DNA from: an uncultured Bacilli bacterium
GTDB taxonomy: Bacteria; Bacillota_I; Bacilli_A; RF39; UBA660
Length of the DNA: 20,275 bases
Assembly (NCBI GenBank): GCA_910586635.1
Contig: CAJUJA010000019.1
Location: 1 to 20,275, forward strand
Reading direction: 5' to 3'
In this document: positions 3,443 to 20,275 of the stretch, in pieces
Layout: each line of letters starts with the position of its first letter
Numbering within the stretch: the first letter of the stretch is position 1
The notes under the pieces: generated by a model
What the model was told of the DNA's origin: nothing
The model's input: the letters and a program-made list of their open reading frames with translations, nothing else
Databases searched by the model: none
Program-made: the position numbers and the translations under genes

Positions 3443-3472
3443 CAAGAGTAAATTCTCTTGATTTTTTATTTT
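3443..3472 (+). terminator. Rho-independent terminator
   Basis: CAAGAG-taaatt-CTCTTG stem-loop directly after stop codon 3439-3441, followed by ATTTTTTATTTT. Confidence 0.6.
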
Positions 3473-3537: not shown

Positions 3538-4125
3538 ATGGTAGAGCAAGTTAGTAGAAATAATAATTTAAAAATACCAAAGGAGATTGAAGTGGTAGTA
3601 AAAAATACCAATTCTATAGAAGATGAACTTTCATCCATAGAAGCCGTTGCAACAGCAAATGACCAAAAGTTCCAAAAGAATAGGATCAAAAAAAAATTAG
3701 AGGATTCTAATAAGGATACAGAGGTCATATCACAAATACCTACCAATGCCAATGACTTAATGGTAATAACAGTAGTGAAAAAATTAGGTGCTTATATTAT
3801 TGCAGTAACAGAAAAATCACCAAAAAAATTTAGAGGAGTTTTTGTTGTAAGAATGCAGAATTACTGTCTAGATACTTTAGAAAATCTGTTAGAGGCAAAC
3901 TTTATTAGAATGGATAGTTTAGAAAATAAAAATAAAAGAGCAGAGTTTCAAAAACAAGCCATCATAAAATTAAAATTATTAGGATATATTTCTATGTTAG
4001 CAGAAATATCTGGATGTATTTTAAAAAGACAATATAAGCAAATATCTATACAAGTAGCAGAATCAATTAATTTAATTACAGCTTGGAAAAAAAGTGATGA
4101 TGCTAGATGGAATAATAAAAAATAG
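3538..4125 (+). CDS. avd: DGR accessory variability determinant (Avd-like four-helix-bundle protein) with N-terminal extension
   Basis: The C-terminal ~120 aa (MVITVVKKLGAYIIAVTEKSPKKFRGVFVVRMQNYCLDTLENLLEANFI...INLITAWKKSD) resemble the four-helix-bundle/Avd family, including the basic SPKKFR segment and terminal aW+K. The gene sits directly upstream of TR and RT. The first ~74 aa are an extra acidic/basic extension. An internal ATG at 3760 has no RBS. Confidence 0.7.
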   Translation: MVEQVSRNNNLKIPKEIEVVVKNTNSIEDELSSIEAVATANDQKFQKNRIKKKLEDSNKDTEVISQIPTNANDLMVITVVKKLGAYIIAVTEKSPKKFRGVFVVRMQNYCLDTLENLLEANFIRMDSLENKNKRAEFQKQAIIKLKLLGYISMLAEISGCILKRQYKQISIQVAESINLITAWKKSDDARWNNKK

Positions 4126-4477
4126 GATTTTAAGTCGAAAGACTTTTAATTAAGGGAAAAATCAATTTTTCCTGAATCCCACTGTTTGCGGCTCTTCGCC
4201 CGCGTCGTTAACTAAAATGGTAATAGTAACAACAACAATGTTAATAACCGAAATGGTGGGATTCGCGTCGATTCACTTTTGAAGAGATTCATAAGGAATC
4301 TAAAAAACGAATGTGAGAATTCTATTCTAAGTAGAATAGTACAGAATTTAAAGTGAAGGGATTTTTCTCTTTTCTAACCGCTTAAAGTGCGGTGGAAGAA
4401 CTAGAACACTTACACTTTCCAACGAGAATTTCTTTTTGGATGTTATCAGAGGTGTTCTTTTATTTGGAGGATTATAA
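4126..4477 (+). ncRNA. DGR template RNA region (leader hairpins, TR, structured spacer before RT)
   Basis: 352 nt with no ORF. Stem-loops read from the sequence: 4132-4145 (AAGTC-GAAA-GACTT), 4155-4172 (GGAAAAA-tcaa-TTTTTCC), 4285-4301 (AGATTC-ataag-GAATCT), 4322-4339 (CTATTCT-aagt-AGAATAG), 4377-4393 (ACCGC-ttaaagt-GCGGT). There is also long-range AGAACAC (4403-4409) / GTGTTCT (4452-4458) pairing. Transcript ends are not determinable from sequence. Confidence 0.5.
4197..4276 (+). repeat. DGR template repeat (TR)
   Basis: Aligns without gaps to 5763-5842 (offset 1566). It contains ten AAY codons in the VR reading frame, is GC-rich relative to its surroundings, and has the identical 3' block GGTGGGATTCGCGTCG (4255-4270). 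Confidence 0.9.
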
Positions 4478-5500
4478 ATGTTAGAGGATATATTTTCATT
4501 TGAAAATTTATATGAGGCACATAAGAATTGTAGAAAATCAAAACAGCATAAGGGAGAAGTTGTAAGATTTGAAGTTTCCCTAGCTACTAATTTAGAAAAG
4601 ATAAGAAAAGGGATCGTTACACATAAATATAAAATGGGTAAATATAGAATGTTTCTAATTTATGAACCTAAAAAAAGAGTAATAGAAGCTCCCTGTTATC
4701 GAGATAGAATTGTTATCAGATGTTTTTGTGAACAGGTATTAAAACCTAAAATAGAGAAAAAACTTATTTATGATAATGCAGCATGTAGAAAGGGAAAGGG
4801 AACCCATTTTTCTATTAATCGATTAGAAAAATTTCTTAAAAGAGAGTACTTAAAAAGTCATAATAATAATAATATATACTTTTTAAAGTGTGATATTAGT
4901 AAATATTTTCCTAGTATTGATCATAGTATTTTACTTAATTTATTAAAAAAAATAGAGTTTAGTGATGAGGAAATAGAATTTATAGAATTATTAGTAAAAG
5001 CTGTGCCAAGTAAACAAGGGCTTCCACTAGGAAATCAGTCTAGTCAGTGGTTTGCCCTACTATATTTAAACAAGATAGATAGACTAATTAAGGAAAAGTT
5101 AAGAATTAAAGGTTATATTAGATATATGGATGATATGATTTTAATTAGTCGGGATAAAAACTATTTAAGATATTGCTTAGAACAAATTAAAAAGGTATGT
5201 AAGAATGAACTACATCTTTTATTAAATCAAAAAACGCAAATTGGTAAAGTGAAAGACGGAATTGACTTTTTAGGATATCGACATATATTAGATCAAAATG
5301 GAAAAGTAATTAGAAAGTTAAGGGCCAGTTCTAAGATAAGATTAAAAAGACATCTAAAGTTTTTAAAAAAATTAAGAGAAAGCGAAATAGTGGATGATCA
5401 ATATGTTGATATAAGAAAAAATGCTTATTATGAGTATTTAAAGAATACTAAGGAAAGTAAAAATTTCAAAGAACAAGTAAAACAAGTGTCAAGTGATTAA
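4478..5500 (+). CDS. DGR reverse transcriptase
   Basis: 340 aa with a GGAGG RBS at 4466-4470. Catalytic YMDD at 5123-5134 (IRYMDDMILIS). LGNQSSQ at 5027-5047 matches the (I/L)GxxxSQ motif characteristic of DGR RTs. The compact size and the position directly after TR also fit. Confidence 0.9.
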   Translation: MLEDIFSFENLYEAHKNCRKSKQHKGEVVRFEVSLATNLEKIRKGIVTHKYKMGKYRMFLIYEPKKRVIEAPCYRDRIVIRCFCEQVLKPKIEKKLIYDNAACRKGKGTHFSINRLEKFLKREYLKSHNNNNIYFLKCDISKYFPSIDHSILLNLLKKIEFSDEEIEFIELLVKAVPSKQGLPLGNQSSQWFALLYLNKIDRLIKEKLRIKGYIRYMDDMILISRDKNYLRYCLEQIKKVCKNELHLLLNQKTQIGKVKDGIDFLGYRHILDQNGKVIRKLRASSKIRLKRHLKFLKKLRESEIVDDQYVDIRKNAYYEYLKNTKESKNFKEQVKQVSSD

Positions 5501-5541
5501 CGATTTTATTTCCAAAAGTTGGTATTAATGGTATATTATAA

Positions 5542-7512
5542 ATGGTGATAAATATGGAATTAACTTTATTAGAAGAAGATCAAATTAAAGGAAATAATCG
5601 GTTAGAGATATTTGACAAAATAGGAACAAAGGCAGCAATAACAGACTATGCAATCGCATTAGGGGGATTGGTTGCTTCAAATTTTTTTACAAAAGGTGGA
5701 GAGAATCAGTTAGAATGCAGAACAGGATATTATTGGACTAAAACATGTGATGGGGATAATGACGCCCGCGTCGTTAACTATTATGGTAATAGGAGCCGCA
5801 GCGTTGTTGATCGCCGCTGTGGTGGGATTCGCGTCGCTTTACCGTACTCAGAAATCGCTTCAATCGCCTCGAACGAAGTGAGAGGGCCAGATGGAGTAGT
5901 GCAGTTAGAAGCCGGATACCTTCCAAAAAAAATAACTTCAAAACAATTACAAAAGGAACTAGAAAGAATCTATGATCGAAAAAAAAGATTTTTTCAGAAA
6001 GATACAACTTTAAAGAATATTAGTAAAAACTATACAGTAGATAGTAGAAATTATGATGAGTATTCAGAAAAATTTGATCCTGAGCAATTAGAAGAGGTCG
6101 AATTAACCAATGGAAAAAAGTATACAAGAGTAATTATAAAACCACGTTTTAATGAGAAAATGGTAACATTTTCAGATGGAGAAATTTATCAAGTAGGGGA
6201 TGCTGTTTGGATAGAAAAATGTCCTGTTACATGGTATAGAGACTTAAAAACAGATACCGTTTTTAATAAGGACATCATTGTATCAGGAATACCATTTAAT
6301 CATGAGAGAAATTATACAGGAAATTTTTCTAAAACAGATATGTATAAATATTTAAATACACATTTATTAAAGGATATGGAACTTATTTCTCCACAAATTA
6401 GTTATGATAGTACAAACACAGAAAAAATTGAGGATTCAGTAACAAAAGCGAAAAAGAAAAATCCTTTTGATTTTGACTTCAGTATGGTAGATGAGGAAGA
6501 TATTATAAGGGGTGCTCTTGAGAGTGATGTTCCTATTTACTTACATGGTAGATCCAGTGAAGGAAAAAGTTCTAGAGTAAAACAATATGATCCAGATTGT
6601 GAGATTGTATATTTAGTATCAGCATCTATTGATTCAATTAATGGAAAAAGTGTGTATAATCAGGATACAGGAGAAATGATAGATATCCCTCCAACTTGGT
6701 ATGAACGCCTAAAACAAAAGTGTGAAAATGAGCCAGATAAACTTCATATTGTATTCTTTGATGAATTAGCTAACGCAGACCGCTCGATTAGAAAAAGTAT
6801 TTTTAATATCATTCTTGACAAAGAAATCAATGGAAAATGGAAACTTCCTTCAAACGCAAGGATCGTAGGGGCCGGAAATGAAATAGAAGACTCTAGTGTT
6901 GCAGAGGAACTACCAGCACCTTTATTTAATCGCTTTGCTCATGTATATATTCATACTTCAGTAGAGTCATGGCTTTCGTGGGCTATTACAGATAAAGGAG
7001 AATATGAACGCCTAGATTATAAAAAAGAGGAATTAAAATATAAAATCCATCCTGCTATTTACTCTTTTATAGCATACCGTGGGGAAGATGTATTAAGAAG
7101 TAAATATGATGGAAAAAGACCTAATGCTGATCCGAGAAAATGGGAACTAGCCTCTAAAATATTAGAAAAAACGAATCAACCAGAAATGATTCGTGCTTTG
7201 GTTGGAGAAGAGATTGCTAGTGAATTTATAGGTTTTTGTAGTCAAGAAGTCATTACTTTAGACGATGTATTAAACGATGATTATACAGACTATGATTTAG
7301 AAATGGATATGTCACAAAAGGCTGCTACGGTATTAGCTCTTTCAAATGTAGATATGGAAAATATGGAAAAGGTAAGGAACTTTACCATAAAGTTAGGACC
7401 TTCTTCTTGTGCACAATTTGAGAATCTATGGGCACATGGAGATGCAAATAGATTAGAGCAAATAGAACTCCTTCATATGAAAGATGCTGAAAAAGGGGGT
7501 GTACGAAGATGA
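5542..7512 (+). CDS. DGR target protein: N-terminal VR-bearing (C-type-lectin-fold-like) domain fused to a MoxR/AAA_5-like AAA+ ATPase
   Basis: 656 aa. The VR encodes aa 75-100 (ARVVNYYGNRSRSVVDRRCGGIRVAL). Walker A GRSSEGKS (6547-6570), Walker B IVFFDE (6748-6765), IVGAGNE sensor-like motif, PLFNRF. No signal peptide or TM is apparent. The start could be ATG 5554 (GGTGA 5 nt upstream) instead of 5542. Confidence 0.85.
   Translation: MVINMELTLLEEDQIKGNNRLEIFDKIGTKAAITDYAIALGGLVASNFFTKGGENQLECRTGYYWTKTCDGDNDARVVNYYGNRSRSVVDRRCGGIRVALPYSEIASIASNEVRGPDGVVQLEAGYLPKKITSKQLQKELERIYDRKKRFFQKDTTLKNISKNYTVDSRNYDEYSEKFDPEQLEEVELTNGKKYTRVIIKPRFNEKMVTFSDGEIYQVGDAVWIEKCPVTWYRDLKTDTVFNKDIIVSGIPFNHERNYTGNFSKTDMYKYLNTHLLKDMELISPQISYDSTNTEKIEDSVTKAKKKNPFDFDFSMVDEEDIIRGALESDVPIYLHGRSSEGKSSRVKQYDPDCEIVYLVSASIDSINGKSVYNQDTGEMIDIPPTWYERLKQKCENEPDKLHIVFFDELANADRSIRKSIFNIILDKEINGKWKLPSNARIVGAGNEIEDSSVAEELPAPLFNRFAHVYIHTSVESWLSWAITDKGEYERLDYKKEELKYKIHPAIYSFIAYRGEDVLRSKYDGKRPNADPRKWELASKILEKTNQPEMIRALVGEEIASEFIGFCSQEVITLDDVLNDDYTDYDLEMDMSQKAATVLALSNVDMENMEKVRNFTIKLGPSSCAQFENLWAHGDANRLEQIELLHMKDAEKGGVRR
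5763..5842 (+). repeat. DGR variable repeat (VR)
   Basis: It is the counterpart of TR. Across TR 4197-4271, 15 of 26 TR adenines are substituted in VR while only 1 of 49 non-A positions differs (TR T4227 vs VR G5793). Homology ends after the shared GC-rich block; TR 4271/4274 differ from VR 5837/5840. Confidence 0.9.
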
Positions 7513-7913
7513 TGGATCATTCAAAACTGGAAATGTTAACAACCTATATGAAAGCAAATGTAGCACCTATTTTAGTTGAAAATATTTCTAAAGATGTATT
7601 TGTTGAACAGGCTGTAATTATTGAGGCAACAATTGATAAATCCCTTTTAAATGGACATTATGAAGGAATTGAGTATTTACCTCCTGAGTGGTTTTCTAAA
7701 TTAAAGGAAAAAAAACTTTTAGTTATTAATCAGCTATCCAGTATTCCAAAATCGGATCAGAAAAAATTTATAGAACTTCTAAAATATAAAAAAATTAGTA
7801 CCTTTGAATTACCAGAAAACTGTGTGATTGTTATTACCTGTGAGGACTCTAGGATGATAAATGAAGAAATATATTCATTAGTTGCTCATATAGGAGAACA
7901 AAATGGCAATTGA
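7509..7913 (+). CDS. Hypothetical 134-aa protein translationally coupled between the ATPase and the VWA protein
   Basis: ATGA overlap with the target-gene stop (7509-7512), GGGGGT RBS 8 nt upstream, and an 11-nt overlap with the next ORF. No motif recognised. Confidence 0.7.
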   Translation: MMDHSKLEMLTTYMKANVAPILVENISKDVFVEQAVIIEATIDKSLLNGHYEGIEYLPPEWFSKLKEKKLLVINQLSSIPKSDQKKFIELLKYKKISTFELPENCVIVITCEDSRMINEEIYSLVAHIGEQNGN

Positions 7914-9180
7914 TATTGATGATATTAAGAGAAGGTTATTAATTAAATATCCATCCTTCGGTAGCACGATGGCAAAGGTAAAATTTGTTGAAGACGATAC
8001 TTGTTATTATAAAGGAAAACCTACGGCAGCAACCGATAATGATGCCACATATTTTCATCCGGATTTTATTAATAGTCTGAATAAAAATCAACAAGTTACT
8101 ATTTTTGCACATGAAATTGCACATATCGTATTGGACCACATTGATAGAAGTGGGGGGAAAGATCCAGATATATGGAACGAAGCAACGGATGCTGTTATTA
8201 ATGCTAATTTAAAAAAAGATGGATTAGAAATGGTTCCAGGTATGATTGATAGAGAGGATGCCCTTTATTATGATGAGGAGACATTATATGAAAAACTATA
8301 TAATGAGAAAAAACAAAGTAAAGGTAGGAAGGGACAAAAACCCCATGCATCTCATGGAAAATGGAAAAATGCAGTAGATAATAGAAAAAAGAAAAATCAG
8401 AATTCTATGAATGAGAAGAATAAGGAAAATAAAAATCAAAGTTCTGCGAATGAGGAGAATAAAGAGAATAAGGAAAATTTTACAAACGCAAATGAGCTTT
8501 TTAAAAGTGCTCGAAAAGAAAGAGTAAATAATTTAAAAAAACTAAAGAAGCAGTTAATAGAAAAATCTATGCAGAGTCAATCGAAAGGAACTTCTCAAAA
8601 CCGAAATATAAATAATATTGGAAATGCAACTAAATTAGTAGATTGGAGGATTTTGCTTGGAGATACATGCAAAATAGATGCTGATTGGACTTATCAAAAT
8701 GCAACCATAGAATACGGAGTATTAACTCCACACATGGAGGATATAAAAACAGTAGAAGTGGAGATACTCTTAGATACAAGTGGCTCAGTAAATGAAAATA
8801 TGTTAAGAAATTTTTTGAAAGAGTGCATGGGGATTTTAAAACAAGCTAATATTAAAATAGGTTGCTTTGATGATAGGTTTTATGGATTTCACACGATTCA
8901 TTCAAGAGGACAATTGGAGGATGTTCGGTTAGAAGGTGGAGGAGGGACAGATTTTAATGTAGCTGTAAATGCCTTTACTAAAAATGCTGATTATAAAATT
9001 ATTTTTACAGATGGTTTAGCAAAAATGCCGAATATGGAGGTAAACGCAATTTGGATTGTTTACGGTGGAAAGGTAATTAGCCCAAAAGGAGGAAGGGTAA
9101 TTAATATTGATAATGAAGCATTAAGAAAATTGAATTGTGTACAAACATTTAATCATGAAGTTAGATATAGAGGTAAATAA
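7903..9180 (+). CDS. HExxH metallopeptidase-like N-domain + VWA domain protein (DUF2201-type MoxR partner)
   Basis: AGGAG RBS 6 nt upstream. FAHEIAHIVLDH with HEIAH at 8110-8124. K/N/E-rich low-complexity linker (about 8290-8640). C-terminal VWA with MIDAS-like DTSGS (8773-8787) and GGGTDF. This domain pair next to a MoxR-like ATPase is a known genomic association. Confidence 0.8.
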   Translation: MAIDIDDIKRRLLIKYPSFGSTMAKVKFVEDDTCYYKGKPTAATDNDATYFHPDFINSLNKNQQVTIFAHEIAHIVLDHIDRSGGKDPDIWNEATDAVINANLKKDGLEMVPGMIDREDALYYDEETLYEKLYNEKKQSKGRKGQKPHASHGKWKNAVDNRKKKNQNSMNEKNKENKNQSSANEENKENKENFTNANELFKSARKERVNNLKKLKKQLIEKSMQSQSKGTSQNRNINNIGNATKLVDWRILLGDTCKIDADWTYQNATIEYGVLTPHMEDIKTVEVEILLDTSGSVNENMLRNFLKECMGILKQANIKIGCFDDRFYGFHTIHSRGQLEDVRLEGGGGTDFNVAVNAFTKNADYKIIFTDGLAKMPNMEVNAIWIVYGGKVISPKGGRVINIDNEALRKLNCVQTFNHEVRYRGK

Positions 9181-9484: not shown

Positions 9485-9508
9485 ATTTAGTACGAGGGAG
9501 GTTTGAGA

Positions 9509-10183
9509 ATGTCTGAAATATATTCGGATGCTGATGATTGCCTTGATTTAGCAAGGTATCTAAAGACACAAATGGGGAGAAAAATTAGTTTTTATGGAAG
9601 CACATATCAAGAGGTAATAAGTGGATCTTACTTTTCTGACTTTGAAAGTAAATGTTGTCACGTTTATGGAGAGGGCTTAGCATTTTATTATAAATTTTGT
9701 AAAGAGGGATTTTTAAGAATTGGAATTGGTTCGTTTCCGTTACATAATAATTCTGTAGGGGAGAAATTAGCAGCTTTAAGTAGTTTTTATGAAGCATTGA
9801 GTGAGCAATATGGAGAACCGACTTTTTTTTATACAATAAAGGATGATGATGAGGGTACTTTATCCTTACAATGGTCCTTTGCTAATAAAGAAGAGGATAT
9901 CCAAAATTTAAGAAGCGGAAACTATTTTGACGATGGTGAAATAGATGAGCTGATTGTGATTGATGAACCAAGAACTCAAATGAATAGTTATGAATTAAAC
10001 GATACTACAAAAAAATTTAATGCAAACAAAATTGGCATTCCTTGTGGTTTGATCGATTTAGTTAATGAAAATATAGATGATTTTGTTAAATATAAAACTG
10101 GAAAAGAAATTGGTATCCCAGAAGGAACAAAAATTGATGGTGTTTCTGTAACATCATTTCAAAAGAAAATATCTTTGAAATGA
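9509..10183 (+). CDS. Hypothetical protein
   Basis: The ORF track starts at TTG 9503. ATG 9509 is preferred because GAGGGAGG (9494-9501) lies 7 nt upstream. No recognisable motif, signal peptide or TM. Confidence 0.7.
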   Translation: MSEIYSDADDCLDLARYLKTQMGRKISFYGSTYQEVISGSYFSDFESKCCHVYGEGLAFYYKFCKEGFLRIGIGSFPLHNNSVGEKLAALSSFYEALSEQYGEPTFFYTIKDDDEGTLSLQWSFANKEEDIQNLRSGNYFDDGEIDELIVIDEPRTQMNSYELNDTTKKFNANKIGIPCGLIDLVNENIDDFVKYKTGKEIGIPEGTKIDGVSVTSFQKKISLK

Positions 10184-10217
10184 ATAAAAAAATAATAATA
10201 TTAATAGGTGGTTCAAT

Positions 10218-10718
10218 ATGGAGTCTAAATTAGATAGTTTATTAAAAATAACAAGGGAAAATTATAAAAGGTTATTAGAAGGATATGAAAGACAGGTTAA
10301 AAATAATTTTGGTTTATCAGCAGAAAAAAAGGATGATATAGATAAATTATTTTCTAAGACAGGCGAAAATATATTATCAGAATGTTTAGAAAGATATAGT
10401 TTTAATGTAACTAGAAATTTAGGAAAAAAAACTAATTATTCTGTTGAAATACCAGCCATTGCGAAGAAAGATTTATCAGGAGCAGAAAAACAATACTTGT
10501 TATTCCTATTTTTAAATAAAATGGAAGAGTATTGTTTTGATGAAGTGGGTTTTCAGGGTGCTTCTATTATTAAAAAATATTGCTCAACTAGTAAATTAGA
10601 TCAGGATCTTATTATAGGAAAAAATCCAGATGTATTCTACTCTAGAGAATGTTACTTTTTGCATTTGAGTTTTTCTCCACATAGAACTTATTCAAAAAGA
10701 ATGATTAAAAGTAATTAA
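10218..10718 (+). CDS. Hypothetical protein
   Basis: 166-aa ORF with an AGGTGG RBS 6 nt upstream, 34 nt after the previous stop, so probably in the same operon. No motif recognised. Confidence 0.7.
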   Translation: MESKLDSLLKITRENYKRLLEGYERQVKNNFGLSAEKKDDIDKLFSKTGENILSECLERYSFNVTRNLGKKTNYSVEIPAIAKKDLSGAEKQYLLFLFLNKMEEYCFDEVGFQGASIIKKYCSTSKLDQDLIIGKNPDVFYSRECYFLHLSFSPHRTYSKRMIKSN

Positions 10719-10825
10719 TAATAAGAATAAAGAAAGTTTTTATAAAAAGATCAATCATCATAGAAACATTACTAGTTACATGATATAATATAATAAAGTA
10801 TTAGCAATTAAAGGAGTACATTAAA

Positions 10826-11216
10826 GTGAAGAGTATAGTATTATCTGGTAGTATGAAAGTAAAAGAGGAAATACTAAAAGTTGGGAAAGAATTAGAAAAA
10901 ATGGATTTTGTGTATTACTTCCAGATGAGTATATAAAAAAACAACCGAAAAAATTGCCTCTAGACAACATTTTAATCGAATTATAGATCCTGAGAATGAA
11001 ATTTTGTTAGTAGTAAATTCAAATCGAAATGGGATAGATAATTATATTGGAGCAAATTCATTTGCTGAAATAGCATTTGAATTTCAATTTAATAAGAATG
11101 TATATTTACTAAATGATATTTATGAGCCATTTAAAGATGAATTAATAGGTTGGAATATTAAAGTATTAAAAGGTGATTTATCCTGCTTAATAGATCAAGG
11201 AAATAAACATAATTAA
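10826..11216 (+). pseudogene. Frameshifted small Rossmann-like gene (tentatively nucleoside 2-deoxyribosyltransferase-like family)
   Basis: GTG 10826 with an AAGGAG RBS and an upstream TGaTATAAT. The reading frame continues sensibly only by shifting twice: VKSIVLSGSMKVKEEILKVGKELEK / GFCVLLPDEYIKK / KIASRQHFNRIIDPENEILLVVNSNRNGIDNYIGANSFAEIAFEF.... The shifts map to A-runs at 10896-10901 and at 10935-10941 or 10948-10953. The family assignment is a recollection-level guess. Confidence 0.55.
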
Positions 11217-11256
11217 TTATAAATACAGTTATATGAAATAACTAGGAGGAAATCTT

Positions 11257-12082
11257 ATGCTGATATATAAAAATACATTTGAAGATGAATCTGTAAAGGG
11301 GTATAATTACCCAATAGAAGATCAGTATTATGCGGAAGATACTATTGCAGTTATAGCAGATGGAATAACCAGGGATCCAGATGGAGTAACAGATATATCA
11401 GAGTATAGCTTTTTAGAGTTATTACAAAGATATCCTAGACCAAGTGGAGGAGAACTAGCAGCTAAAGAAATTATTCATACATTTAGAAATAGTAGTAGTC
11501 GTTCATTAAAAGAAAGATTGATTGAGTGTAATAGAGCAGTAAAAAAGTTGAATAATCAGTATATTAAAAAGTGTGATTACTTACAAAATGATTATTATGG
11601 GGCAGTAGCGTCTTGCTGTCAAATAAGGGATGAATGGTTAGAATATGCATATATTTGTGATTGTGGAATTATTGTCTATAATAGTAAAGGTAAAGTTAAA
11701 TTTCAAACAGAAGATGACAAAAAAATTTATAGTGATCCCTATATCAATAAAATTAGAATTCCATGGGAAAAAAGTGAGGCTAGAGTAATTGTAAGAAAGG
11801 ACTTTAGAAATAATGTAAATAACATTCGAGATGGAAGATGGAGCTATTACAGGAGAGTGTAATGCTGAAAGTTTTATTCGTTGTGGTAAGGTAAAATTAG
11901 ATAGAGAAGATATTATTCTAACCTATAGTGATGGTTTTACAGACTTGTTACAGGAAGAAGAGTTTATCAGTCAAATTCTCCATTTTGAAAAAAGTGAGTT
12001 TGAACAATTTATAACAGAAATTTCAAAGAAAGATCCTAAAAAGTATGGAAGAGAAAAAACTTTAGTTATTATGAAAAAATAA
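11257..12082 (+). pseudogene. PP2C-like protein phosphatase gene disrupted by a 7-bp tandem duplication
   Basis: AGGAGG RBS. ORFs 11257..11862 and 11831..12082 join into one frame if one copy of AGATGGA (11829-11835 / 11836-11842) is removed, giving ...NNIRDGAITGECNAESF.... PP2C-like motifs are AVIADGITRD and LTYSDGFTDLL. Confidence 0.6.
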
Positions 12083-12215
12083 AAATTTAGTGAAGTTAAG
12101 TAATATAACCTTACCTTTTTGTCTCTTTTATTATATATTGAATTCAACAACAAAAAGAGATAGTATTATAATAAAACTTATGTTATAATATTTACCAATA
12201 CAAAGAAGGGATATT

Positions 12216-14390
12216 ATGAGTGATATACAAACATCGTTTTATGAATCTATTTACTCTAACTTCAGACAATTAGACGAAAATGATTTAAATGTACAGAAAA
12301 AATATCAACAATATTTAGATAGATTGGTAGATGTTTTTTTAATGCTAGAATATAAAAAAGATAGAAAAAATAATGCTGTTTATACGATTGATCAAGTTCA
12401 CATGTATTGTATGAGTTTCTTTTGGGAGGTAAGATCGCAATGTCAGAAACAACAATTACAAATACTAGCTAACAAAATCGCATATATTACCAAAAAAAAA
12501 GATGAAATTCCTTATTATCTTAAGAAAGTAGAAAAATTATATGAAACTTATCAATCCTTAGGAAAATGTAATGATGCAAAATTTTATAATGAAATTTTAA
12601 ATAAACAACAAAATTTTTATCTTTCAAAAACAAAAAAGGAAATAATTATGGAATTAACAGATAGGTTTCCATTAACAGAAAAAGCAAAGCAAAGGTTAAT
12701 TAATAGGGTTAAAATTCCAATTATTATAGATAGAATAAAAAAAGGAGAGTATGCTTCCTTTTGTAGTACGAAGGAAGAATTGAAGAAACAATTAAAAAAA
12801 ATACACACAAGTCTTTCGAATAAAAGAGCTTTGAAAAAGACGTATTTTTTTTCAAAAGAGGATTATGAGTTTTTGGATAATCATTTTTTGATAGGAAACT
12901 TATCTAAGGATGTATTAGAAAAAAGGTTCCCGTTTTTTGATAAAGGAAAGATAAAGATGATAATAAATGTTTACTATCGTATATTGTTACCCTATCTAGA
13001 TAATATTTCATTAGATAGAAAGGATATTCCTAGAGTTAATATTTCATTAAATTATAAACAGTTAAAACTTTATAATAAACGGCAGCTAGAACAAAATATA
13101 AAAGATTTGGAAAGTTCCCTATCTCCTAATCAAAAAGAAAAAATATTACAGGAACCAGATTTTAAAGAATTAGTAAAATTATTACCTTTGGTTAATCAAT
13201 CTAAAATTTTTAAAATGGATACTTTTCTTAAAATAGCTTTAAATATCTCTAAAATAAAAGAATACTTACTGTTAAAAGAAGAAATGAATCTTAAGCTGAT
13301 TTTAAATCAGTTACCAAAGGTGATAGAGCTAGCAGATGCTTACAGTCAATCTAATGGAAGAACGTGTGCTATTTTAGGAGAAACCCTTATTAGTAGAATA
13401 ATTGAAGATAATGTCACTAGTTGTAAGCCAGAGGATTATCTAACGAGTTATTTAAAAATGTTAAATCAACCTTATAGTAAAATTCCACCTATTTGCGGAA
13501 AATTTCAAGAATATAGTTATGAAAGTGGTAATAACAGTGTAGATCGCTTATTGATTGGCAAAAATAGTTACAGAAGTTGTCTAGGACCTGCAGGAGCAGG
13601 AGAAAAGGCCTATGAACTGGCACTTTCCAGTGTAGATGCTGATGTGCTAATTATAAAAAAAGATAATAGTGAGTTTATAGGGAGAACTCTTTTATTTCGT
13701 CAAGGAAATTTCGTTATATTGGCACCCGTTATGGGAAGGAGAGGGCTTAATAAGATGCTATATGATGAGGAATTTTTGATGCAAATTGGAAATCAAATGA
13801 TAGAAAAAGCAATATTACAACAAGATCGTTTAGATTACGTGTTTTTAACGAAATTTGGACTTCTGAAAAAGTTGGACTTTTTCTATTTAGCTGATACTAA
13901 ATTAGGTAAAGGTTTGCCTCATTGTGATATAGAACCATTGGCATATCTTATAGCATCAAAGGAATTATTGAAAAATCCTGACAAGAAAGACTTCTTAAAG
14001 GAAGACATTTATCTAGATTTAGATGCAAAAGATCAAGTGCTTTATTTTAAAGAAAGACCTCCAGTAAATAAAAAAGAGGCTAACTATATCAAAGATATTC
14101 AAAAGATTAGAGGATTAAAAATGGATAATTCATCTAATGCTGAAATTAACATTTCGAAAGATGAAGATTATGATGAGGTTTATGTCGGACAAGATTGGTA
14201 TATTGCAATAAAGGATAAAAAAATTGTTGAGACCTGTGTTTATAAAGTGGAAGATCCAAGGCAGGATGCAGAAATAACTATGATTGTTGATAATCTTGTG
14301 GAACAGGGAATGATGAATAGTTCAGGCGAATATGGAAAACATTCAAAAGTCAGGATGAAAGAGTATTCAAGTAATAATAATTTAACTTAA
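12216..14390 (+). CDS. Large hypothetical protein (724 aa)
   Basis: Long uninterrupted ORF with a GAAGGGA RBS. N-terminal half is K/E/L-rich and helical. C-terminal half has a conserved-looking block SCLGPAGAGEKAYELALSSVDADVLIIKKDNSEFIGRTLLFRQGNFVILAPVMG. No family recognised, no TM or signal peptide. Confidence 0.75.
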   Translation: MSDIQTSFYESIYSNFRQLDENDLNVQKKYQQYLDRLVDVFLMLEYKKDRKNNAVYTIDQVHMYCMSFFWEVRSQCQKQQLQILANKIAYITKKKDEIPYYLKKVEKLYETYQSLGKCNDAKFYNEILNKQQNFYLSKTKKEIIMELTDRFPLTEKAKQRLINRVKIPIIIDRIKKGEYASFCSTKEELKKQLKKIHTSLSNKRALKKTYFFSKEDYEFLDNHFLIGNLSKDVLEKRFPFFDKGKIKMIINVYYRILLPYLDNISLDRKDIPRVNISLNYKQLKLYNKRQLEQNIKDLESSLSPNQKEKILQEPDFKELVKLLPLVNQSKIFKMDTFLKIALNISKIKEYLLLKEEMNLKLILNQLPKVIELADAYSQSNGRTCAILGETLISRIIEDNVTSCKPEDYLTSYLKMLNQPYSKIPPICGKFQEYSYESGNNSVDRLLIGKNSYRSCLGPAGAGEKAYELALSSVDADVLIIKKDNSEFIGRTLLFRQGNFVILAPVMGRRGLNKMLYDEEFLMQIGNQMIEKAILQQDRLDYVFLTKFGLLKKLDFFYLADTKLGKGLPHCDIEPLAYLIASKELLKNPDKKDFLKEDIYLDLDAKDQVLYFKERPPVNKKEANYIKDIQKIRGLKMDNSSNAEINISKDEDYDEVYVGQDWYIAIKDKKIVETCVYKVEDPRQDAEITMIVDNLVEQGMMNSSGEYGKHSKVRMKEYSSNNNLT

Positions 14391-14601
14391 TTTGAAATTA
14401 ATCATGAATTCTGTAATCTTTTTCCTTGGATTGATACTAATAGAAGGAGTCCATAAGCAACTACATTGAATGTTAATTAGAACCTGTTAATGAGTATATT
14501 AATCAATAGTTTCCTATTACTGCAATAGGAATTATTAATGAAAAGATATTGCATTAGTAACTAAATAAGGTGTATAATAAATTCTGATTAGGAGGTTTAG
14601 T

Positions 14602-15201
14602 ATGGGAAAAAAGTTAAATTCATTAACAAAATATCCAAAAGAAGGAGATCTATTTGGTATCAATCTTAAGTTTATAAAAATATTTAATATATATAGGGGA
14701 TTTGATGAAAAAGGAGTATATAATCGAAACATAGGTCTTATAGAGGGAGAGGAACATTTAGATGATGGACTTACAATATGTGAATATATTGGAGATGGAA
14801 TTTGTGTGGAATGCTTGACTGGAACAAAAATACAACTGTCATTCGAAATGAATCAATATGGATCAGAAAGAAGTTATAAAAATCATAAGGTTCAAATGGA
14901 TCAAGATTGGATAGAAATGAAAGAGGAGTATGAAAGAATAAAAGAGGCTCCTTTATCATATTCAATAGAACTAAGAAATAAATCGATTTTTTCTAACCTT
15001 TACAGAATAGATGATGGCTTTAAATTTGAATTTGGAAAACAGGAGAAGAAAGAGACGGAAATACAATCAGAGATTTCTAAACTAGCAAAGAGCAGTTTGG
15101 ATGTGATGGAAATATGCTTTAAGGAAATAAGTAAAGATGAGTATTCTATAGCTTATACAGATAATGTTATTTTTAAATATAAGAGCAAAAAAAATAATTA
15201 G
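14602..15201 (+). CDS. Hypothetical protein (199 aa)
   Basis: AGGAGG RBS 7 nt upstream and TATAAT at 14573-14578. No motif recognised. Confidence 0.65.
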   Translation: MGKKLNSLTKYPKEGDLFGINLKFIKIFNIYRGFDEKGVYNRNIGLIEGEEHLDDGLTICEYIGDGICVECLTGTKIQLSFEMNQYGSERSYKNHKVQMDQDWIEMKEEYERIKEAPLSYSIELRNKSIFSNLYRIDDGFKFEFGKQEKKETEIQSEISKLAKSSLDVMEICFKEISKDEYSIAYTDNVIFKYKSKKNN

Positions 15202-15589: not shown

Positions 15590-18500
15590 ATGTTGAACAT
15601 AAAAAAGATTAGAATCTTTAAAATATTAGGTATAACGATATGTATTCTATCTATAACCGTAGGACTATGCTTCTTATGTAATAACATATTGATGAAAGAA
15701 AAGACTATGGCAAATGTAGAGACTATAGGTTACTATAATTCCAGAAGTAGTGATAGTTCTGCAGATTATAGACAAGTTTATTTAAGTGAATTGGAACCAA
15801 CTGAAAAACGTATTGGGTATGGGGAATTAGTAAATGATGCTGATTTATCCGGGAATCCAATTACTATGTTAATTGAAGGGAACTATTTCTCTTTTAAAAA
15901 AGGAGTATTTGCTCATGCCAATTCAACCTTGGTTTACGATTTAACAGATTATAGTGATTATAACTACTTCGTTACATTTATAGGATTGAATAAAACATCG
16001 ACTCAAGGCAATGGTGTAACTTATCATTTTTATACATCAAACAATAGAAATGAATGGACTGAATTTAAAGATCCGATTGTAAAAAAGCCTAAAGAGGCCG
16101 GAAGTTTTGTACAGATTCCTTTGGAAAACGTCAATTATTTGAAGTTAGTCGCAGACTCTAATGGATCAAATGCATCAGATCACTCTGTGTATGCTGATGC
16201 TAAATTGGTAACTGAAGTAAACGGGAATTTTATTTTAGATTCGATTGAAGATATAGATAAACAAATAAATAATATCTATAATGGTGGGGCAGCGATTAAT
16301 GGCGAATTAGAATATAGTATTTTAAAAAGAGAACTTGTCAAAAGAGTAGGTCAATATACACTAAACTCTTTCTATAATGAAAGTGAAGATAATAAAGCCA
16401 CTATAGACTGGCTTTTAAGTAACAAAGAGGTATTAAATTACTATATTTTAGGTGGAACCCCAGATGGAAATAGTTACTATAATTCTTTAACTCAATTATC
16501 TAGATTATATAAAAAATATAAAGAAGACTTTAAAATACAAGAAACTACGATATATGGTACAGTTTTAGGTGATTTATACACTCGTATGGCTATTGCTTTA
16601 TCACTTACTCACTCCCAAAGAGTTGGTCTGTGGATGCAATCTAGTATAAAAGAGAATCAGTCGGATGCCGTAGTTCGTTATCAGATATTCAAAGAATTAC
16701 ATAAAAACAACAAGTTTAAGGCAACTGAAGCGATGAATATGACAAAATGGTTTGAGCAATATAATGTTGAAAATATGAGGTTTGTAATGAATTCTAATAT
16801 CGATGATGAATCTATATTATGGTTAAACGAATATGTTCAAAGTAAAATTGATGAAAACCCAGGAAGAGCTTGGTCATATTTGACACCACATCCATATATT
16901 GCTTATGTTTGGCCAAACTATGCAAATCCAGTGTATTATGATGAGGAAAACTATGACTACTTTAATGAACTGTTTTCCGTTAAAGGAAAAAAGATGTATG
17001 ATTATGGTATCACTCGTGGGACAAATGATCATAAGGTATATAAACAATGGATGAATTTCAGAAATAAATTTGGTACTGGAGCAGTCTGTGGAGGAATTTC
17101 TAAATCGGGTGCTGTTATTCGTGCAACCCATGGTATTGCTGCAACAGTGATTGGACAACCAGGACATGCAGCACTTCTATATTATACAGCCGATGCAGAA
17201 GGTAAAGGATATTGGAGACTTGATAATGATGTCAGTGGGTGGACTCTATCGGAAAAAGGTGAAAGAATGCTTCTAGGATGGGGTAATGGTAGCTATGCAA
17301 AAGGTTCTTATCAGGTTGTCTATATGGCCTTAGCACAAGAAGCTTTAAATGATTATGAAAACTTCGAAAAAGCAGAAAAACTCATAATGTTAGCAAGGAC
17401 ATTTGGCGACAATCCCACAAAACAAGAGGAACTACTTAGAAAAGCTTTAGAAGTTCAATCTATTAATTTGGATGCATGGCTTGATTTAATAACTCTTTAT
17501 AATAATAGTGATAGTAAATCTGAAGGAGATTACTATGCTTTATCAGAAGAATTAGCAAATAGTTTAAAATATTTTCCACTTCCAATGTACAATTTAACTA
17601 ACTTGATCAAACCTAAGATGGTAAGTGTTGAAAACTCATTCAAATTTACATTACTACAAACTAGAACTTTAAATCAGGCAAAAAGTACGCCAAACAATAC
17701 TACAGACAGTTATACAGTTTATCAACCAGATTTGACTAGAATCGAGGCGAATTTCTTATTAGGAAAAGTTGATAGTTCTCTTGCTACATTCTCTTTTGAT
17801 GGAGTTGACGCTGAAAAAATTGTTCTATCCGAACGCTTTAATGGAAGTGGAGTGCGCTTTGATTATAGCTTAGATGGAAAAAACACCTGGAACGAAGTAT
17901 CATTCACTGGAGAAGAGGAACACAAATTACAATTGACCAAAGATCAAATTAATAATATCACCTCGGAAAATGATATCTATATCCATATTGTTGGAACAAG
18001 CTATGAAGAAAAAAATTTATATAAAATAGATATTACTGAAGGAAGTTTGCCTGCTGAATTGTTTGCAAATGACTTGGAAAACAGGGTGATAGGAGTCAAT
18101 TTGAATACTGAATGGCGTTATAATGAAAATGATTTTTGGACTTCATACAACGTTGCTTCCCCTGACTTGACAGGAAATAAGACAGTCCAAGTAAGACAGG
18201 CGGCCACTGGTACAGCACTTGCAAGCTCCCCATCACCAATGTATACATTTACAAAAGATGATCAACCCAATACAAGAAAATACATCCCTGTATCTCATTT
18301 GACTATTGAGACAGTTTCCACAGAGGCGGTTAACAATGGTGGTGGTGCTGTAAAAGCCATTGATGGGAACTATAATACGAGATATCATTCTGCCTGGAAT
18401 GGAACTGATACTGAACGTTTTATAATTATAAAACTTGATGAATCTGTTATTTTATCAGCAGTTGAGTTCGTCCCAGCGGGCGGAGGAAACGGTAAGATAT

Positions 18501-20275
18501 ACGATGGTACCGTTTATGGAAGTATGGATGGTAAGAATTGGGAAAGGTTATCGAGTTTGAAGAATCTAACATACACTAATCAGGCTAATACAGTAGACGA
18601 TGCTATTATAAATACAAAAAGTTTTGAAATAACTGGGGAAAAAGAGGTTCAGTATGTTAAAATTGTGGCGGATCGTACTAATGGTAATTGGTTTGCAGCA
18701 AGAGCATTTAATCTTTATCAAGATTTAACTAAAAATCCACATCCTACTGCTGGAATTGCTTACAGTACTACAGAACTTACAAACGGCAAAGTTGTCGCAA
18801 GGCTTATAAACCCTAGCAGGGAAATAATTATTACAAATAATGAGGGATCCGATACCTATACATTTAGTGAAAATGGCGAGTTTACTTTCGAATTCAAAGA
18901 TAAAAACGGTGTAACAGGATCCGCAACTGCTAAAGTTGATTGGATTGATAAGAATATACCTGATGCAAATATCGACTACAAATTAGATAGCAATCATAAA
19001 TTGAGCATTTCTTTAGATGATATTAGTGAAGATGTATATCTGTTAGATAAGAATGACAAACCTATCAACTTTATTGAGGTTAAAAACAAAAAGGTGACAA
19101 GAGTCTCTTATTTGAATTCTGAAAATGAAATAACTAAAACTGTATATCTCGATGAAAATGGATGTATTACAAAAATCGTCTATATTAACACAAATAAAAA
19201 TATCCCAGCAGTTGCAACCTATACCACTATAATAGCAAATGGAGCTGTAACCAGTGAAGAGTATTATGATGAGGTAGGAGGCAAAGTAGAAGTTTCCGAT
19301 GCAGATAAGGAAGCATTAAGAGGGTTACAACAGGCTATAACAGATCCTCTTGAATATACATTTGAAAACAGTGGAAGTCATGAATTTAAATTACTTGACA
19401 AAGCTAAAAACATTGCCTATAAGAGTGTTAAAGTTGACTATGATGAGGATAATGATAGGATTATAGCAAGTGATATATCCTATGATATAACCCACTTAAC
19501 TAATAAAGATGTTGTGGCTACCATCAAAGCATATGTATTCGAAGATGGGAAAAAGAAGAACGCAGCAATCACCTCAGGAGGGGATTCTTATACATTTAAT
19601 ACAAATGGAAAGTTTACATTCCAGTATAAAGGTAGTAATGATTCAGATGACGATGTAAAGAATCATACTGCTAAAGTTACTTGGATTGATAAGGTTGTTC
19701 CAACGGCTAAAGTTAAATACACTACAAGAGAAAATGGAGAAGTCATTGCAACTTTAGTCAACGAAAGTGAAAAGATAATTATAACCAATAATGGGTTCAG
19801 TAGGGAACGTAAATTCAATAAAAATGGAGAATTTACATTTATATTTGAAGATGAGGCTGGAAATGTAGGCAGAACTATTGCTAAAGTAAACTCTATACAA
19901 GAAAAAAAACCTAACAATTCATCTACTACTGGAGGCAATTCTTCTGTAAATCATTCTAAACCAAGTAAATCATCTAAGCCTAATAATAAACATAACCCTA
20001 CTACTAGTAACAATCAAAGCTCAAATATAAGTGAATCTAGCGATAAAACAACTTCCGAGGAGACTACTAAATCTAATAATAAAGAATCTAAAAATGCAGT
20101 AGATAAAAAGAACGTCGTTAGAGATATCAATAACAAGAATAATATGACTGAAAATCAAAGGTCAACCCGAGAGGATAAAAAAATGGATAATATAATAATC
20201 AAAGTCGTCGTAGTATTTATGGTTATTACATTGGGAGTGTTAACAGTAGGCTTCTATTTTAAAAAGAAAAACTAG
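15590..20275 (+). CDS. Large multidomain cell-surface protein (NPCBM-like, Cys/His/Asp core, F5/8 type C discoidin, Ig-like repeats, S/T/N-rich stalk, C-terminal TM anchor)
   Basis: AAGGAG RBS 9 nt upstream. N-terminal hydrophobic anchor (aa 8-33). NPCBM-like segment about 15773-16210 (GYGELVNDADL...KGVFAHANS...). Possible transglutaminase/papain-like triad C500 (17087-17089), H526 (17165-17167) and D in WRLDNDVSGW. Discoidin about 18284-18724 (AIDGNYNTRYHSAWNG...). Three related ~70-aa repeats (..TNN.GSDTYTF..NGEFTFEF.D..GN...A.V.WIDK..P). Low-complexity stalk. Terminal IIIKVVVVFMVITLGVLTVGFYFKKKN and stop at 20273-20275. Confidence 0.9.
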   Translation: MLNIKKIRIFKILGITICILSITVGLCFLCNNILMKEKTMANVETIGYYNSRSSDSSADYRQVYLSELEPTEKRIGYGELVNDADLSGNPITMLIEGNYFSFKKGVFAHANSTLVYDLTDYSDYNYFVTFIGLNKTSTQGNGVTYHFYTSNNRNEWTEFKDPIVKKPKEAGSFVQIPLENVNYLKLVADSNGSNASDHSVYADAKLVTEVNGNFILDSIEDIDKQINNIYNGGAAINGELEYSILKRELVKRVGQYTLNSFYNESEDNKATIDWLLSNKEVLNYYILGGTPDGNSYYNSLTQLSRLYKKYKEDFKIQETTIYGTVLGDLYTRMAIALSLTHSQRVGLWMQSSIKENQSDAVVRYQIFKELHKNNKFKATEAMNMTKWFEQYNVENMRFVMNSNIDDESILWLNEYVQSKIDENPGRAWSYLTPHPYIAYVWPNYANPVYYDEENYDYFNELFSVKGKKMYDYGITRGTNDHKVYKQWMNFRNKFGTGAVCGGISKSGAVIRATHGIAATVIGQPGHAALLYYTADAEGKGYWRLDNDVSGWTLSEKGERMLLGWGNGSYAKGSYQVVYMALAQEALNDYENFEKAEKLIMLARTFGDNPTKQEELLRKALEVQSINLDAWLDLITLYNNSDSKSEGDYYALSEELANSLKYFPLPMYNLTNLIKPKMVSVENSFKFTLLQTRTLNQAKSTPNNTTDSYTVYQPDLTRIEANFLLGKVDSSLATFSFDGVDAEKIVLSERFNGSGVRFDYSLDGKNTWNEVSFTGEEEHKLQLTKDQINNITSENDIYIHIVGTSYEEKNLYKIDITEGSLPAELFANDLENRVIGVNLNTEWRYNENDFWTSYNVASPDLTGNKTVQVRQAATGTALASSPSPMYTFTKDDQPNTRKYIPVSHLTIETVSTEAVNNGGGAVKAIDGNYNTRYHSAWNGTDTERFIIIKLDESVILSAVEFVPAGGGNGKIYDGTVYGSMDGKNWERLSSLKNLTYTNQANTVDDAIINTKSFEITGEKEVQYVKIVADRTNGNWFAARAFNLYQDLTKNPHPTAGIAYSTTELTNGKVVARLINPSREIIITNNEGSDTYTFSENGEFTFEFKDKNGVTGSATAKVDWIDKNIPDANIDYKLDSNHKLSISLDDISEDVYLLDKNDKPINFIEVKNKKVTRVSYLNSENEITKTVYLDENGCITKIVYINTNKNIPAVATYTTIIANGAVTSEEYYDEVGGKVEVSDADKEALRGLQQAITDPLEYTFENSGSHEFKLLDKAKNIAYKSVKVDYDEDNDRIIASDISYDITHLTNKDVVATIKAYVFEDGKKKNAAITSGGDSYTFNTNGKFTFQYKGSNDSDDDVKNHTAKVTWIDKVVPTAKVKYTTRENGEVIATLVNESEKIIITNNGFSRERKFNKNGEFTFIFEDEAGNVGRTIAKVNSIQEKKPNNSSTTGGNSSVNHSKPSKSSKPNNKHNPTTSNNQSSNISESSDKTTSEETTKSNNKESKNAVDKKNVVRDINNKNNMTENQRSTREDKKMDNIIIKVVVVFMVITLGVLTVGFYFKKKN

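Follow-up and report, generated by a model that had tools for sequence, protein, structure and literature searches.

What is a diversity-generating retroelement (DGR) for when the region that it rewrites lies in an ATPase of the cell interior? The question is raised by contig CAJUJA010000019.1 of GenBank assembly GCA_910586635.1, from an uncultured Bacilli bacterium (GTDB lineage Bacillota_I; Bacilli_A; RF39; UBA660). Its 20,275 nt, referred to here as the window, contain a co-directional block of avd, a template repeat (TR), a reverse transcriptase (RT) gene, the DGR target gene, a 134-aa open reading frame (ORF) and a gene for a DUF2201 protein, the partner. The cassette comprises five genes in 5.6 kb (Table 1). 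The target gene and the 134-aa ORF are joined by an ATGA overlap (7509-7512), and the ORF and the partner gene overlap by 11 nt (7903-7913). The original prediction for this DNA interpreted the block as a DGR that hypermutates a MoxR-type ATPase coupled to a peptidase-VWA protein, possibly for conflict with phages or mobile elements. It was accurate in the block anatomy, the ORF coordinates and both overlaps, and the motifs that it cited in the target, partner and RT were all located. We find that the DGR is active. Our preferred reading, held with slightly less than even confidence, is that it reprogrammes a recognition head belonging to a cytoplasmic machine of three proteins, with anticipatory recognition in conflict as the likeliest role.

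The TR and its variable repeat (VR) are the only such repeat pair in the whole window. They differ at 17 of 80 nt, and 15 of the 17 mismatches fall at TR adenines. Those at 4271 (A to C) and 4274 (C to T) are fixed differences between the initiation of mutagenic homing (IMH) sequence and its TR counterpart (IMH*) and are common to all related loci; the remaining non-adenine mismatch is a T to G change at 5793. Each repeat contains a mutable part, comprising the adenine-rich positions 4210-4253 of the TR and codons 79-93 (5776-5819) of the VR, and a 3' end that is IMH*-like in the TR (4254-4276) and IMH-like and invariant in the VR (5820-5842). The 3' end of the repeats includes the invariant, G/C-rich segment GGTGGGATTCGCGTCG, followed by the fixed VR/TR differences GCTTTAC versus GATTCAC. 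About 11 codons are rewritten at adenines, which allows about 5.5e13 possible peptides.

Both proteins expected of a DGR are recognizable. The RT matches RVT_1 (5.9e-20), the PADLOC RT model (1.6e-38) and the PHROG RT family phrog_1423 (5.6e-102), and it contains YMDD at residues 216-219 and LGNQSSQ at residues 184-190, which we take to fit the DGR signature [ILV]GxxxSQ. Avd matches PHROG phrog_3206 ('Avd protein of DGR', 3.6e-14) and, at 4e-5 and 23.9 bits, the NCBIfam equivalog DivGenRetAVD, whose cut-off of 80 it does not reach. Its Avd-like four-helix part spans residues ~71-190, and homologues 45-68% identical to it are encoded upstream of the RT in related loci. The N-terminal extension of ~70 residues (3538-3750) precedes this part; the Avd homologues of related loci are similar in length.

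Near-identical genomes carry different VRs, so the VR is not invariant, in keeping with the original prediction. Four contigs from other assemblies (L081-L084) differ from the window at 3, 17, 18 and 18 sites within 5776-5819, and at 0-2 sites in the rest of up to about 8 kb. Every changed VR position except 5793 is templated by a TR adenine. At 5793, the T/G difference of the window is also present in L081, and L082-L084 carry the TR base. Because near-identical contigs differ in the VR, and do so nearly always at positions templated by TR adenines, we conclude that the DGR is active. The protein database also holds several target versions that are identical except at codons 79-93, and cluster P0018 (818 member sequences) varies only in the VR among proteins that are 98-99% identical. 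Among 24 homologues (~50% identity), the VR columns form the sole hypervariable stretch and the remainder is well conserved. In more than 20 related species, the TR/VR pairs are mismatched at 9-16 TR adenines and at 0-2 thymines, with adenine-site mismatches of 12/12, 12/12, 10/10, 14/14 and 14/14 in L012, L030, L033, L069 and L077, respectively. These comparisons show that Avd and the RT copy the TR into target codons 79-93 with errors at adenines.

Loci were fetched for 77 of the 241 species with relatives of the target, and the presence of DGR genes was tallied over 80 loci. The ATPase/DUF2201 operon is linked to avd, an RT and an adenine-specific TR/VR pair in 23 of the 80, a linkage that the original prediction had anticipated. 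Ten more loci have RT remnants, 32 have no DGR and 15 have too little upstream sequence. No RT lies within at least 2.5 kb upstream in the 32 DGR-less loci, every one of which has an intact target. The remnants, mostly without a detectable TR, point to repeated recent DGR loss. The 10 loci with remnants and the 32 without an RT, together with truncated (OFF) alleles at close to the neutral rate, would also be expected if the DGR were decaying, so that TR/VR differences and VR stops are relics without a current diversification function. We consider this very improbable for the window. The window has an intact RT and avd, the RT homologues of related loci show 57-72% identity, several VR alleles sit on otherwise identical DNA with almost all changes at TR-adenine positions, and very few non-adenine changes have accumulated. 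The remnants themselves are 130-850 nt long and lie upstream of intact trios of target, small ORF and partner in L004, L008, L010, L020, L029, L041, L045, L057, L064 and L070.

Table 1. Coordinates of the features of the DGR cassette, numbered from the first nucleotide of the window
Feature	Position	Strand	Remarks
Terminator-like hairpin	3443-3460	+	3' of the upstream 145-aa ORF
avd, DGR accessory protein, 195 aa	3538-4125	+	PHROG phrog_3206
TR	4197-4276	+	Pairs with VR 5763-5842
In-frame TAA in TR	4213-4215	+	Templates VR codon 80, TAT at 5779-5781 in the window
DGR reverse transcriptase, 340 aa	4478-5500	+	RVT_1, phrog_1423
DGR target, 656 aa	5542-7512	+	Head, beta-rich middle, MoxR-like AAA+ core, C-terminal helical domain
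Head segment, aa 1-105	5542-5856	+	Related to the C-terminal, VR-bearing part of DUF6273
VR	5763-5842	+	In the N-terminal head of the target
Beta-rich middle domain, aa ~115-285	5884-6396	+	Secondary structure from models
AAA+ module, aa 317-611	6490-7374	+	phrog_1297, PDB profile, Foldseek
Walker A, GRSSEGKS, aa 336-343	6547-6570	+	
Walker B, IVFFDE, aa 403-408	6748-6765	+	
Sensor-1 region, IVGAGNE, aa 441-447	6862-6882	+	
Arginine motif, PLFNRF, aa 460-465	6919-6936	+	
134-aa degenerate paralogue of the AAA+ core	7509-7913	+	BLASTP and hhalign to the target
DUF2201 partner, 425 aa	7903-9180	+	Zincin-like peptidase, low-complexity linker, VWA with metal-ion-dependent adhesion site (MIDAS)
HEIAH of partner, aa 70-74	8110-8124	+	
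MIDAS of partner, DTSGS, aa 291-295	8773-8787	+	
MIDAS of partner, GGGTDF	8938-8955	+	
MIDAS of partner, FTDG	9004-9015	+	

The TR carries a stop codon in the reading frame of the target, at the position that templates codon 80, and retrohoming places this stop in the VR whenever its adenines are copied correctly. Contigs L083 and L084, from two assemblies, have copied it, so that their targets end as ARVVG-stop; two more database alleles end after codon 79, with Ser or His as the last residue. In the window lineage, three of the six known alleles are OFF, truncated at codon 79. Among 21 related DGR loci, 14 carry one or two in-frame TR stops, usually at the same position. In six of them the VR has a stop at the templated codon and in one more it has a frameshift, and no VR stop is found in the seven DGR loci that lack a TR stop. 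In the tally of 80 loci, the VR is interrupted by a stop in 6 of the 23 with a full DGR and in 0 of the 57 others. Many of the sequences compared here are consensus assemblies of metagenome-assembled genomes. Besides the window, the loci listed for a TR stop or templated VR stops are L001, L006, L010-L014, L018, L019, L021, L040 and L069. We rejected a reading of UGA codons in VRs as tryptophan (Mollicutes code 4), because TGA closes the target gene at its homologous C-terminus in every locus checked, which identifies UGA as a true stop.

At an adenine retention of 25-60%, the expected stop rate is an estimated 19-52% per homing event, and the observed OFF fractions are therefore close to the neutral expectation. 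Since each retrohoming event would yield null alleles at this rate, the DGR also acts as a stochastic ON/OFF switch. DGR codon composition has been said to prevent nonsense codons (PMC10907252), and no report of a TR-encoded stop was found in the literature that we searched. The TR stop contradicts the usual statement that DGRs avoid nonsense and suggests that they can also serve as ON/OFF switches. It is possible, but in our view doubtful, that the nonsense codon is a selected design feature, such that the germline template is null and retrohoming produces either a new specificity or an OFF allele. If so, gut populations would mix armed cells, bearing different cytoplasmic receptors, with unarmed cells; a single element would join hypermutation and phase variation for an intracellular recognition-ATPase-protease machine; and loss of the DGR would leave a lineage with one useful specificity fixed.

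The rewritten codons lie in an N-terminal head segment of the target. In some relatives, residues 23-97 match positions 103-169 of the 172-position DUF6273 profile, with scores of 25.4 bits (P0065) and 27.3 bits (P0004) against a cut-off of 23.5; the window protein is below this threshold. Weak matches to Fib_succ_major also occur in the head. Searches of PDB sequences with a head profile returned chance matches only, and a search with a profile of the head alone recovered only pieces of this family, with no sequence linking it to other DUF6273 proteins. The 'proteins' of ~150 residues that appeared in this search are split genes. By eye, the middle domain (residues 115-285) is similar to the opening part of DUF6273 and the head to its closing part, and the two may form a circularly permuted DUF6273 domain with the middle domain as its N-terminal half. 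A permuted construct of the window protein gave a near-full-length, weak DUF6273 match (17 bits), and the matches of other homologues were unchanged by permutation. What stands of the mutable ligand-binding head that was originally proposed is thus the DUF6273 match of some relatives; the fold models are poor.

In the ATPase core, Gly336, Lys342, Ser343, Asp407, Glu408, Asn446 and Arg464 are invariant in the 24 homologues, and the ATPase part matches PHROG phrog_1297, the N4 gp24-like ATPase family (1.6e-43). Searches of PDB sequences with the target or an alignment of close homologues found nothing. A profile from a broader alignment of the ATPase core was needed to match the MoxR protein 2r44 (best match, 5.7e-5), followed by NtrC-type ATPases, CbbQ (5c3c), RNF213 and McrB. 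In Foldseek, a model of moderate quality (predicted local distance difference test score, pLDDT, 71) gave NorQ of the NorQ-NorD complex as the top match (E 7e-6, probability 1.0), with further matches to McrB, MCM, RNF213, dynein and 2r44. The window target has no Pfam or NCBIfam match at threshold; AAA_5 is matched weakly by 10 of the 24 close homologues, and distant relatives pass the gathering scores of AAA_5 and AAA_3. The label 'MoxR-type' accordingly holds at the superfamily level (2r44, NorQ and the distant AAA_5/AAA_3 matches), the window protein itself being without a Pfam hit. No segment of the five proteins is strong enough for a transmembrane helix or signal peptide in a 19-residue Kyte-Doolittle scan, in which the maxima are 1.53 in Avd and 1.31 in the target. 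The lack of such segments indicates a cytoplasmic location.

The 134-aa ORF is a degenerate copy of the ATPase core. It matches residues 358-468 of the target in BLASTP (6e-6) and, over its whole length, residues 319-468 in hhalign (probability 93.9%, E 1.5e-7). The P-loop is deleted and the Walker B is no longer DE, the glutamate having been lost. In the protein database, this ORF clustered with the ATPase. The third protein of the trio, the DUF2201 partner, matches DUF2201_N (2.6e-28, 99.9 bits) and DUF2201 (3e-14, 53.6 bits), both above the cut-offs, as well as phrog_1314 (1.2e-59). It is homologous to gp25 of phage N4, the neighbour of the gp24 ATPase. HExxH is present in 48 of the 52 partner homologues whose N-terminus was intact on extraction, and 66 of 68 keep the MIDAS motif DxSGS. 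The linker between the peptidase and VWA domains is of low complexity and varies in length among homologues. In the window it is rich in Asn, Lys and Glu (8305-8610) and contains a 39-nt tandem repeat (8380-8457); in relatives it is longer and rich in Gln, Ser and Gly.

An active-looking AAA+ ATPase and an HExxH peptidase encoded in overlapping reading frames might form a degradative machine, in which the head binds a foreign or endogenous protein, the AAA+ ring unfolds or remodels it and the DUF2201 peptidase cleaves that same protein. Such a machine would carry out programmable proteolysis, as opposed to sensing that sets off a response downstream. The AAA+-plus-zincin logic would be like that of FtsH, and the NorQ/NorD ring is a precedent for engaging a segment of a VWA partner. 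We nevertheless think this unlikely. Nothing points to a substrate, the models are too poor to assign pore loops and, to our knowledge, no MoxR-clade ATPase acts as a processive unfoldase.

The trio of target, small ORF and DUF2201 partner is more widespread than the DGR. Relatives are found in 241 of 185,579 species genomes (one genome per species) and form more than 2,000 protein clusters at 90% identity. The hosts are mostly uncultured gut 'Bacilli', 'Tenericutes' or 'Mollicutes' known from metagenome-assembled genomes (MAGs) with low-GC DNA; examples are Coprobacillus sp. CAG:605 and Clostridium sp. CAG:417. Nearly every one of the 77 species loci has the trio, and in more than 20 an avd-TR-RT unit lies directly upstream of it. 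The DGR is an add-on to this conserved trio. The near-identical targets P0060 (L002/L003) and P0050 differ mainly in the VR, and no RT or TR is found within 8 kb, so either a DGR acting in trans or very recent DGR loss is indicated. An IS605-type TnpB gene and a RhuM gene lie upstream in L002/L003.

The head is a modular position, as relatives duplicate it or swap it for other repeats. In two-headed relatives of ~910 residues (P0004, P0007 and P0107), the first ~280 residues, comprising head and beta domain, are tandemly duplicated before the ATPase, and both copies hold a VR-like segment. Other relatives share only the ATPase core and have BspA-type leucine-rich repeats (LRRs), WG repeats or extra AAA domains instead; the LRR version retains the small ORF and DUF2201 gene downstream, without a DGR. 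LRR/WG-repeat relatives are encoded at L088 5001-8893 and L089 3977-6256. A further arrangement, at L086 6001-12455, has two ATPase paralogues (one split by a frameshift), the small ORF and DUF2201, and no DGR.

These distributions also bear on whether the trio is a MoxR-VWA chaperone for maturation or assembly, as are NorQD, CbbQO and the phage pair, with a head diversified to track a variable cellular client. The ATPase core and partner are homologous to N4 gp24 and gp25, which are adjacent, and each has relatives in many other phages; the corresponding pair of jumbo phages has been proposed to act as chaperone and co-chaperone (PMC7824862). The DGR-less copies remain intact and conserved, the pattern of a housekeeping gene. 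Against this role, a fixed client would not readily explain a repertoire of 5.5e13 variants in which null alleles are frequent. Relatives swap the head for LRR or WG repeats or duplicate it, and the phage homologues have no head. No candidate client gene is kept beside the trio. We regard a chaperone role as rather improbable, somewhat more so than joint capture and cleavage of one protein.

The RT, Avd, ATPase and partner each have a PHROG family match, and the cassette occupies different chromosomal positions across species, as would be expected of a phage- or prophage-borne module that serves a mobile element, for example in counter-defence or virion assembly. Homologues of the ATPase core occur in 508 phage records, some annotated as MoxR-like ATPase, and partner homologues in 338. 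The phage ATPases are headless, and a search for the head in phage records gave no match. One IMG/VR contig carries the cassette, but the full-length family is found in only this one of 2.9 million viral contigs versus the 241 species genomes, and no phage genes adjoin the cassette there. The window contains no structural or integrase genes and no repeat boundaries. On these grounds (a single viral contig, no adjoining phage genes and no phage record with the head), we rejected a phage origin, and a module working for a mobile element is highly improbable.

We return to the preferred reading, in which the DGR reprogrammes a receptor within a cytoplasmic machine. The ATPase would form a ring whose peripheral heads bind a variable, probably foreign, protein ligand, and the VWA/MIDAS domain of the partner may dock on this ring by analogy with NorD on NorQ. 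ATP-driven remodelling would then couple ligand capture to the metallopeptidase, either by activating it (a sensor model) or by feeding it the captured ligand (a capture-and-cleave model). The role would most likely be anticipatory recognition in biological conflict with a phage, mobile element or competitor, and DGR-less lineages would retain a frozen, intact specificity. A conflict role is ranked first because of the repertoire size, the swapping and duplication of heads, the ON/OFF behaviour and the precedent that MoxR/vWA and STAND systems diversified by DGRs provide (PMC7159879, PMC10907252). From the interpretation made originally, the anatomy stands in full, the MoxR label at superfamily level and the head as far as the DUF6273 matches extend; the defence role, that is, an immune sensor directed against phages or mobile elements, is something that we infer from these features. 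The same prediction did not include the small ORF as a P-loop-less AAA+ paralogue, the widespread DGR-less trio or the TR stop that leads to OFF alleles.

Several results weigh against a conflict receptor. Canonical MoxR-VWA pairs are maturation chaperones and not immune proteins. AlphaFold models of the full-length target (pLDDT 71) and of residues 1-300 (pLDDT 62) have pLDDT <50 in the VR and are too unreliable there to show a lectin fold, and Foldseek searches of PDB and BFVD with the model of residues 1-300 gave nothing significant. Within the cassette, only the RT matches a PADLOC model: in PADLOC-DB v2, the target and small ORF go unmatched up to E 0.1, and the one match of the DUF2201 partner, to Lit (E 0.041, 11 bits), is at chance level. 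The 143 nearest neighbour genes of 35 loci show no enrichment of defence genes, with only ~2 methyltransferases and 3 helix-turn-helix proteins among the defence-model hits, and the flanks are housekeeping genes (ftsEX/pcsB here; rpsR/dnaB, secA and proS elsewhere). The near-neutral OFF frequency could reflect weak selection on the protein while the DGR is active. Finally, some of the VR sequences are consensus assemblies from MAGs.

DGR-diversified sensors of MoxR/vWA and STAND systems were predicted earlier (Kaur et al. 2020, PMC7159879; Dore et al. 2024, PMC10907252). The system described here resembles the DGR-linked MoxR-vWA ternary systems in its working without being a member of them. 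As in the vWA-MoxR VMAP/STAND systems, the DGR diversifies a binding domain, lectin-type there and putatively so here, of a cytoplasmic protein that is associated with a MoxR ATPase, a vWA domain and a peptidase, and the diversified domain is predicted to be an antigen sensor in those systems too. There, the vWA or STAND protein carries the VR C-terminally and the separate MoxR protein is undiversified, whereas here the VR-bearing head is N-terminal on the ATPase itself. The vWA protein of the window ends at its VWA domain, and a Pfam scan of every ORF in the block found no VMAP component. A zincin fused to vWA (DUF2201) replaces trypsin or caspase as the peptidase, and the third component is a P-loop-less AAA+ fragment, unlike those of the VMAP/STAND systems. 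The hosts also differ, being small-genome gut Bacilli or 'Tenericutes' MAGs rather than multicellular cyanobacteria, actinobacteria and Chromatiales. The TR of the window contains a stop, whereas VMAP/STAND DGRs are reported to avoid nonsense codons.

Other known systems share single features with this one. DGR targets that contain a Midasin-like AAA ATPase domain have been described in CPR (Candidate Phyla Radiation) bacteria and DPANN archaea (Paul et al. 2017, summarised in PMC10907252) and include the 'UVR4' targets (Wu et al. 2018, PMC5758913). By their descriptions, these are like the present target in being AAA-type ATPases themselves and in belonging to uncultured hosts with reduced genomes; they differ in that the VR is C-terminal and unclassified, and these descriptions report no partner genes. 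A phage pair of MoxR-like ATPase and metallopeptidase-vWA protein, with a proposed role in virion assembly, has been described in jumbo phages (Iyer et al. 2021, PMC7824862). N4 gp24 and gp25, encoded by adjacent genes, likewise correspond to the homologous ATPase core (phrog_1297) and DUF2201 partner (phrog_1314) of the window. The phage ATPases are ~350 residues long and lack the head and middle domains, and neither a small degenerate AAA+ ORF nor a DGR is reported there. NorQ/NorD, CbbQ/CbbO and RavA/ViaA share the AAA+ fold class and an obligatory VWA/MIDAS partner, but their ATPases have no recognition head, peptidase or hypermutation, and each serves a fixed client. In the tentaclins of gut phages, DUF6273 is reported to carry an N-terminal VR on a C-type-lectin-like fold (PMC10743442). 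The position of the VR near the N-terminus in a DUF6273-type segment is common to those DGR targets and the window protein; tentaclins, however, are extracellular phage receptor-binding proteins with immunoglobulin-like domains, and the protein here is a cytoplasmic ATPase. In the open-access literature searched, we found no description of DUF2201 with a DGR or of the present architecture.

Predictions of intracellular NTPase systems diversified by DGRs have until now concerned mainly multicellular bacteria and CPR. The abundance and compactness of the present system, and its natural VR alleles on identical backgrounds, make it a practical model for recognition by a cytoplasmic DGR receptor. 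It also suggests a testable role for the uncharacterised DUF2201 peptidase-vWA partner, whose N4 gp24/gp25-like relatives occur in hundreds of phages, and for the P-loop-less AAA+ subunit.

The intergenic RNA of the TR region folds better than shuffled controls (z = -3.3). A perfect 9-bp inverted repeat (4184-4192/4256-4264, GAATCCCAC / GTGGGATTC) brackets the mutagenic part of the TR. This stem was rejected as a conserved element, as it is not kept in 15 related loci and shows no covariation. No inverted repeat was found downstream of the VR when one was looked for.

Upstream of the cassette, the window encodes ftsE, ftsX and a PcsB-like M23 peptidase, and the terminator-like hairpin ahead of avd is likely to be the 5' boundary of the transcription unit. 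Downstream, six ORFs of 166-724 aa at 9503-15201 have no significant family match. Their matches in PADLOC are weak (AbiEii, 0.01; PDC-M49B, 5e-4), and they are not kept beside the trio in other loci. The remainder of the window (15590-20275) encodes a membrane-anchored surface protein of 1561 aa with NPCBM/NEW2 and F5/8 type C domains and a C-terminal stalk rich in Ser, Asn and Lys.

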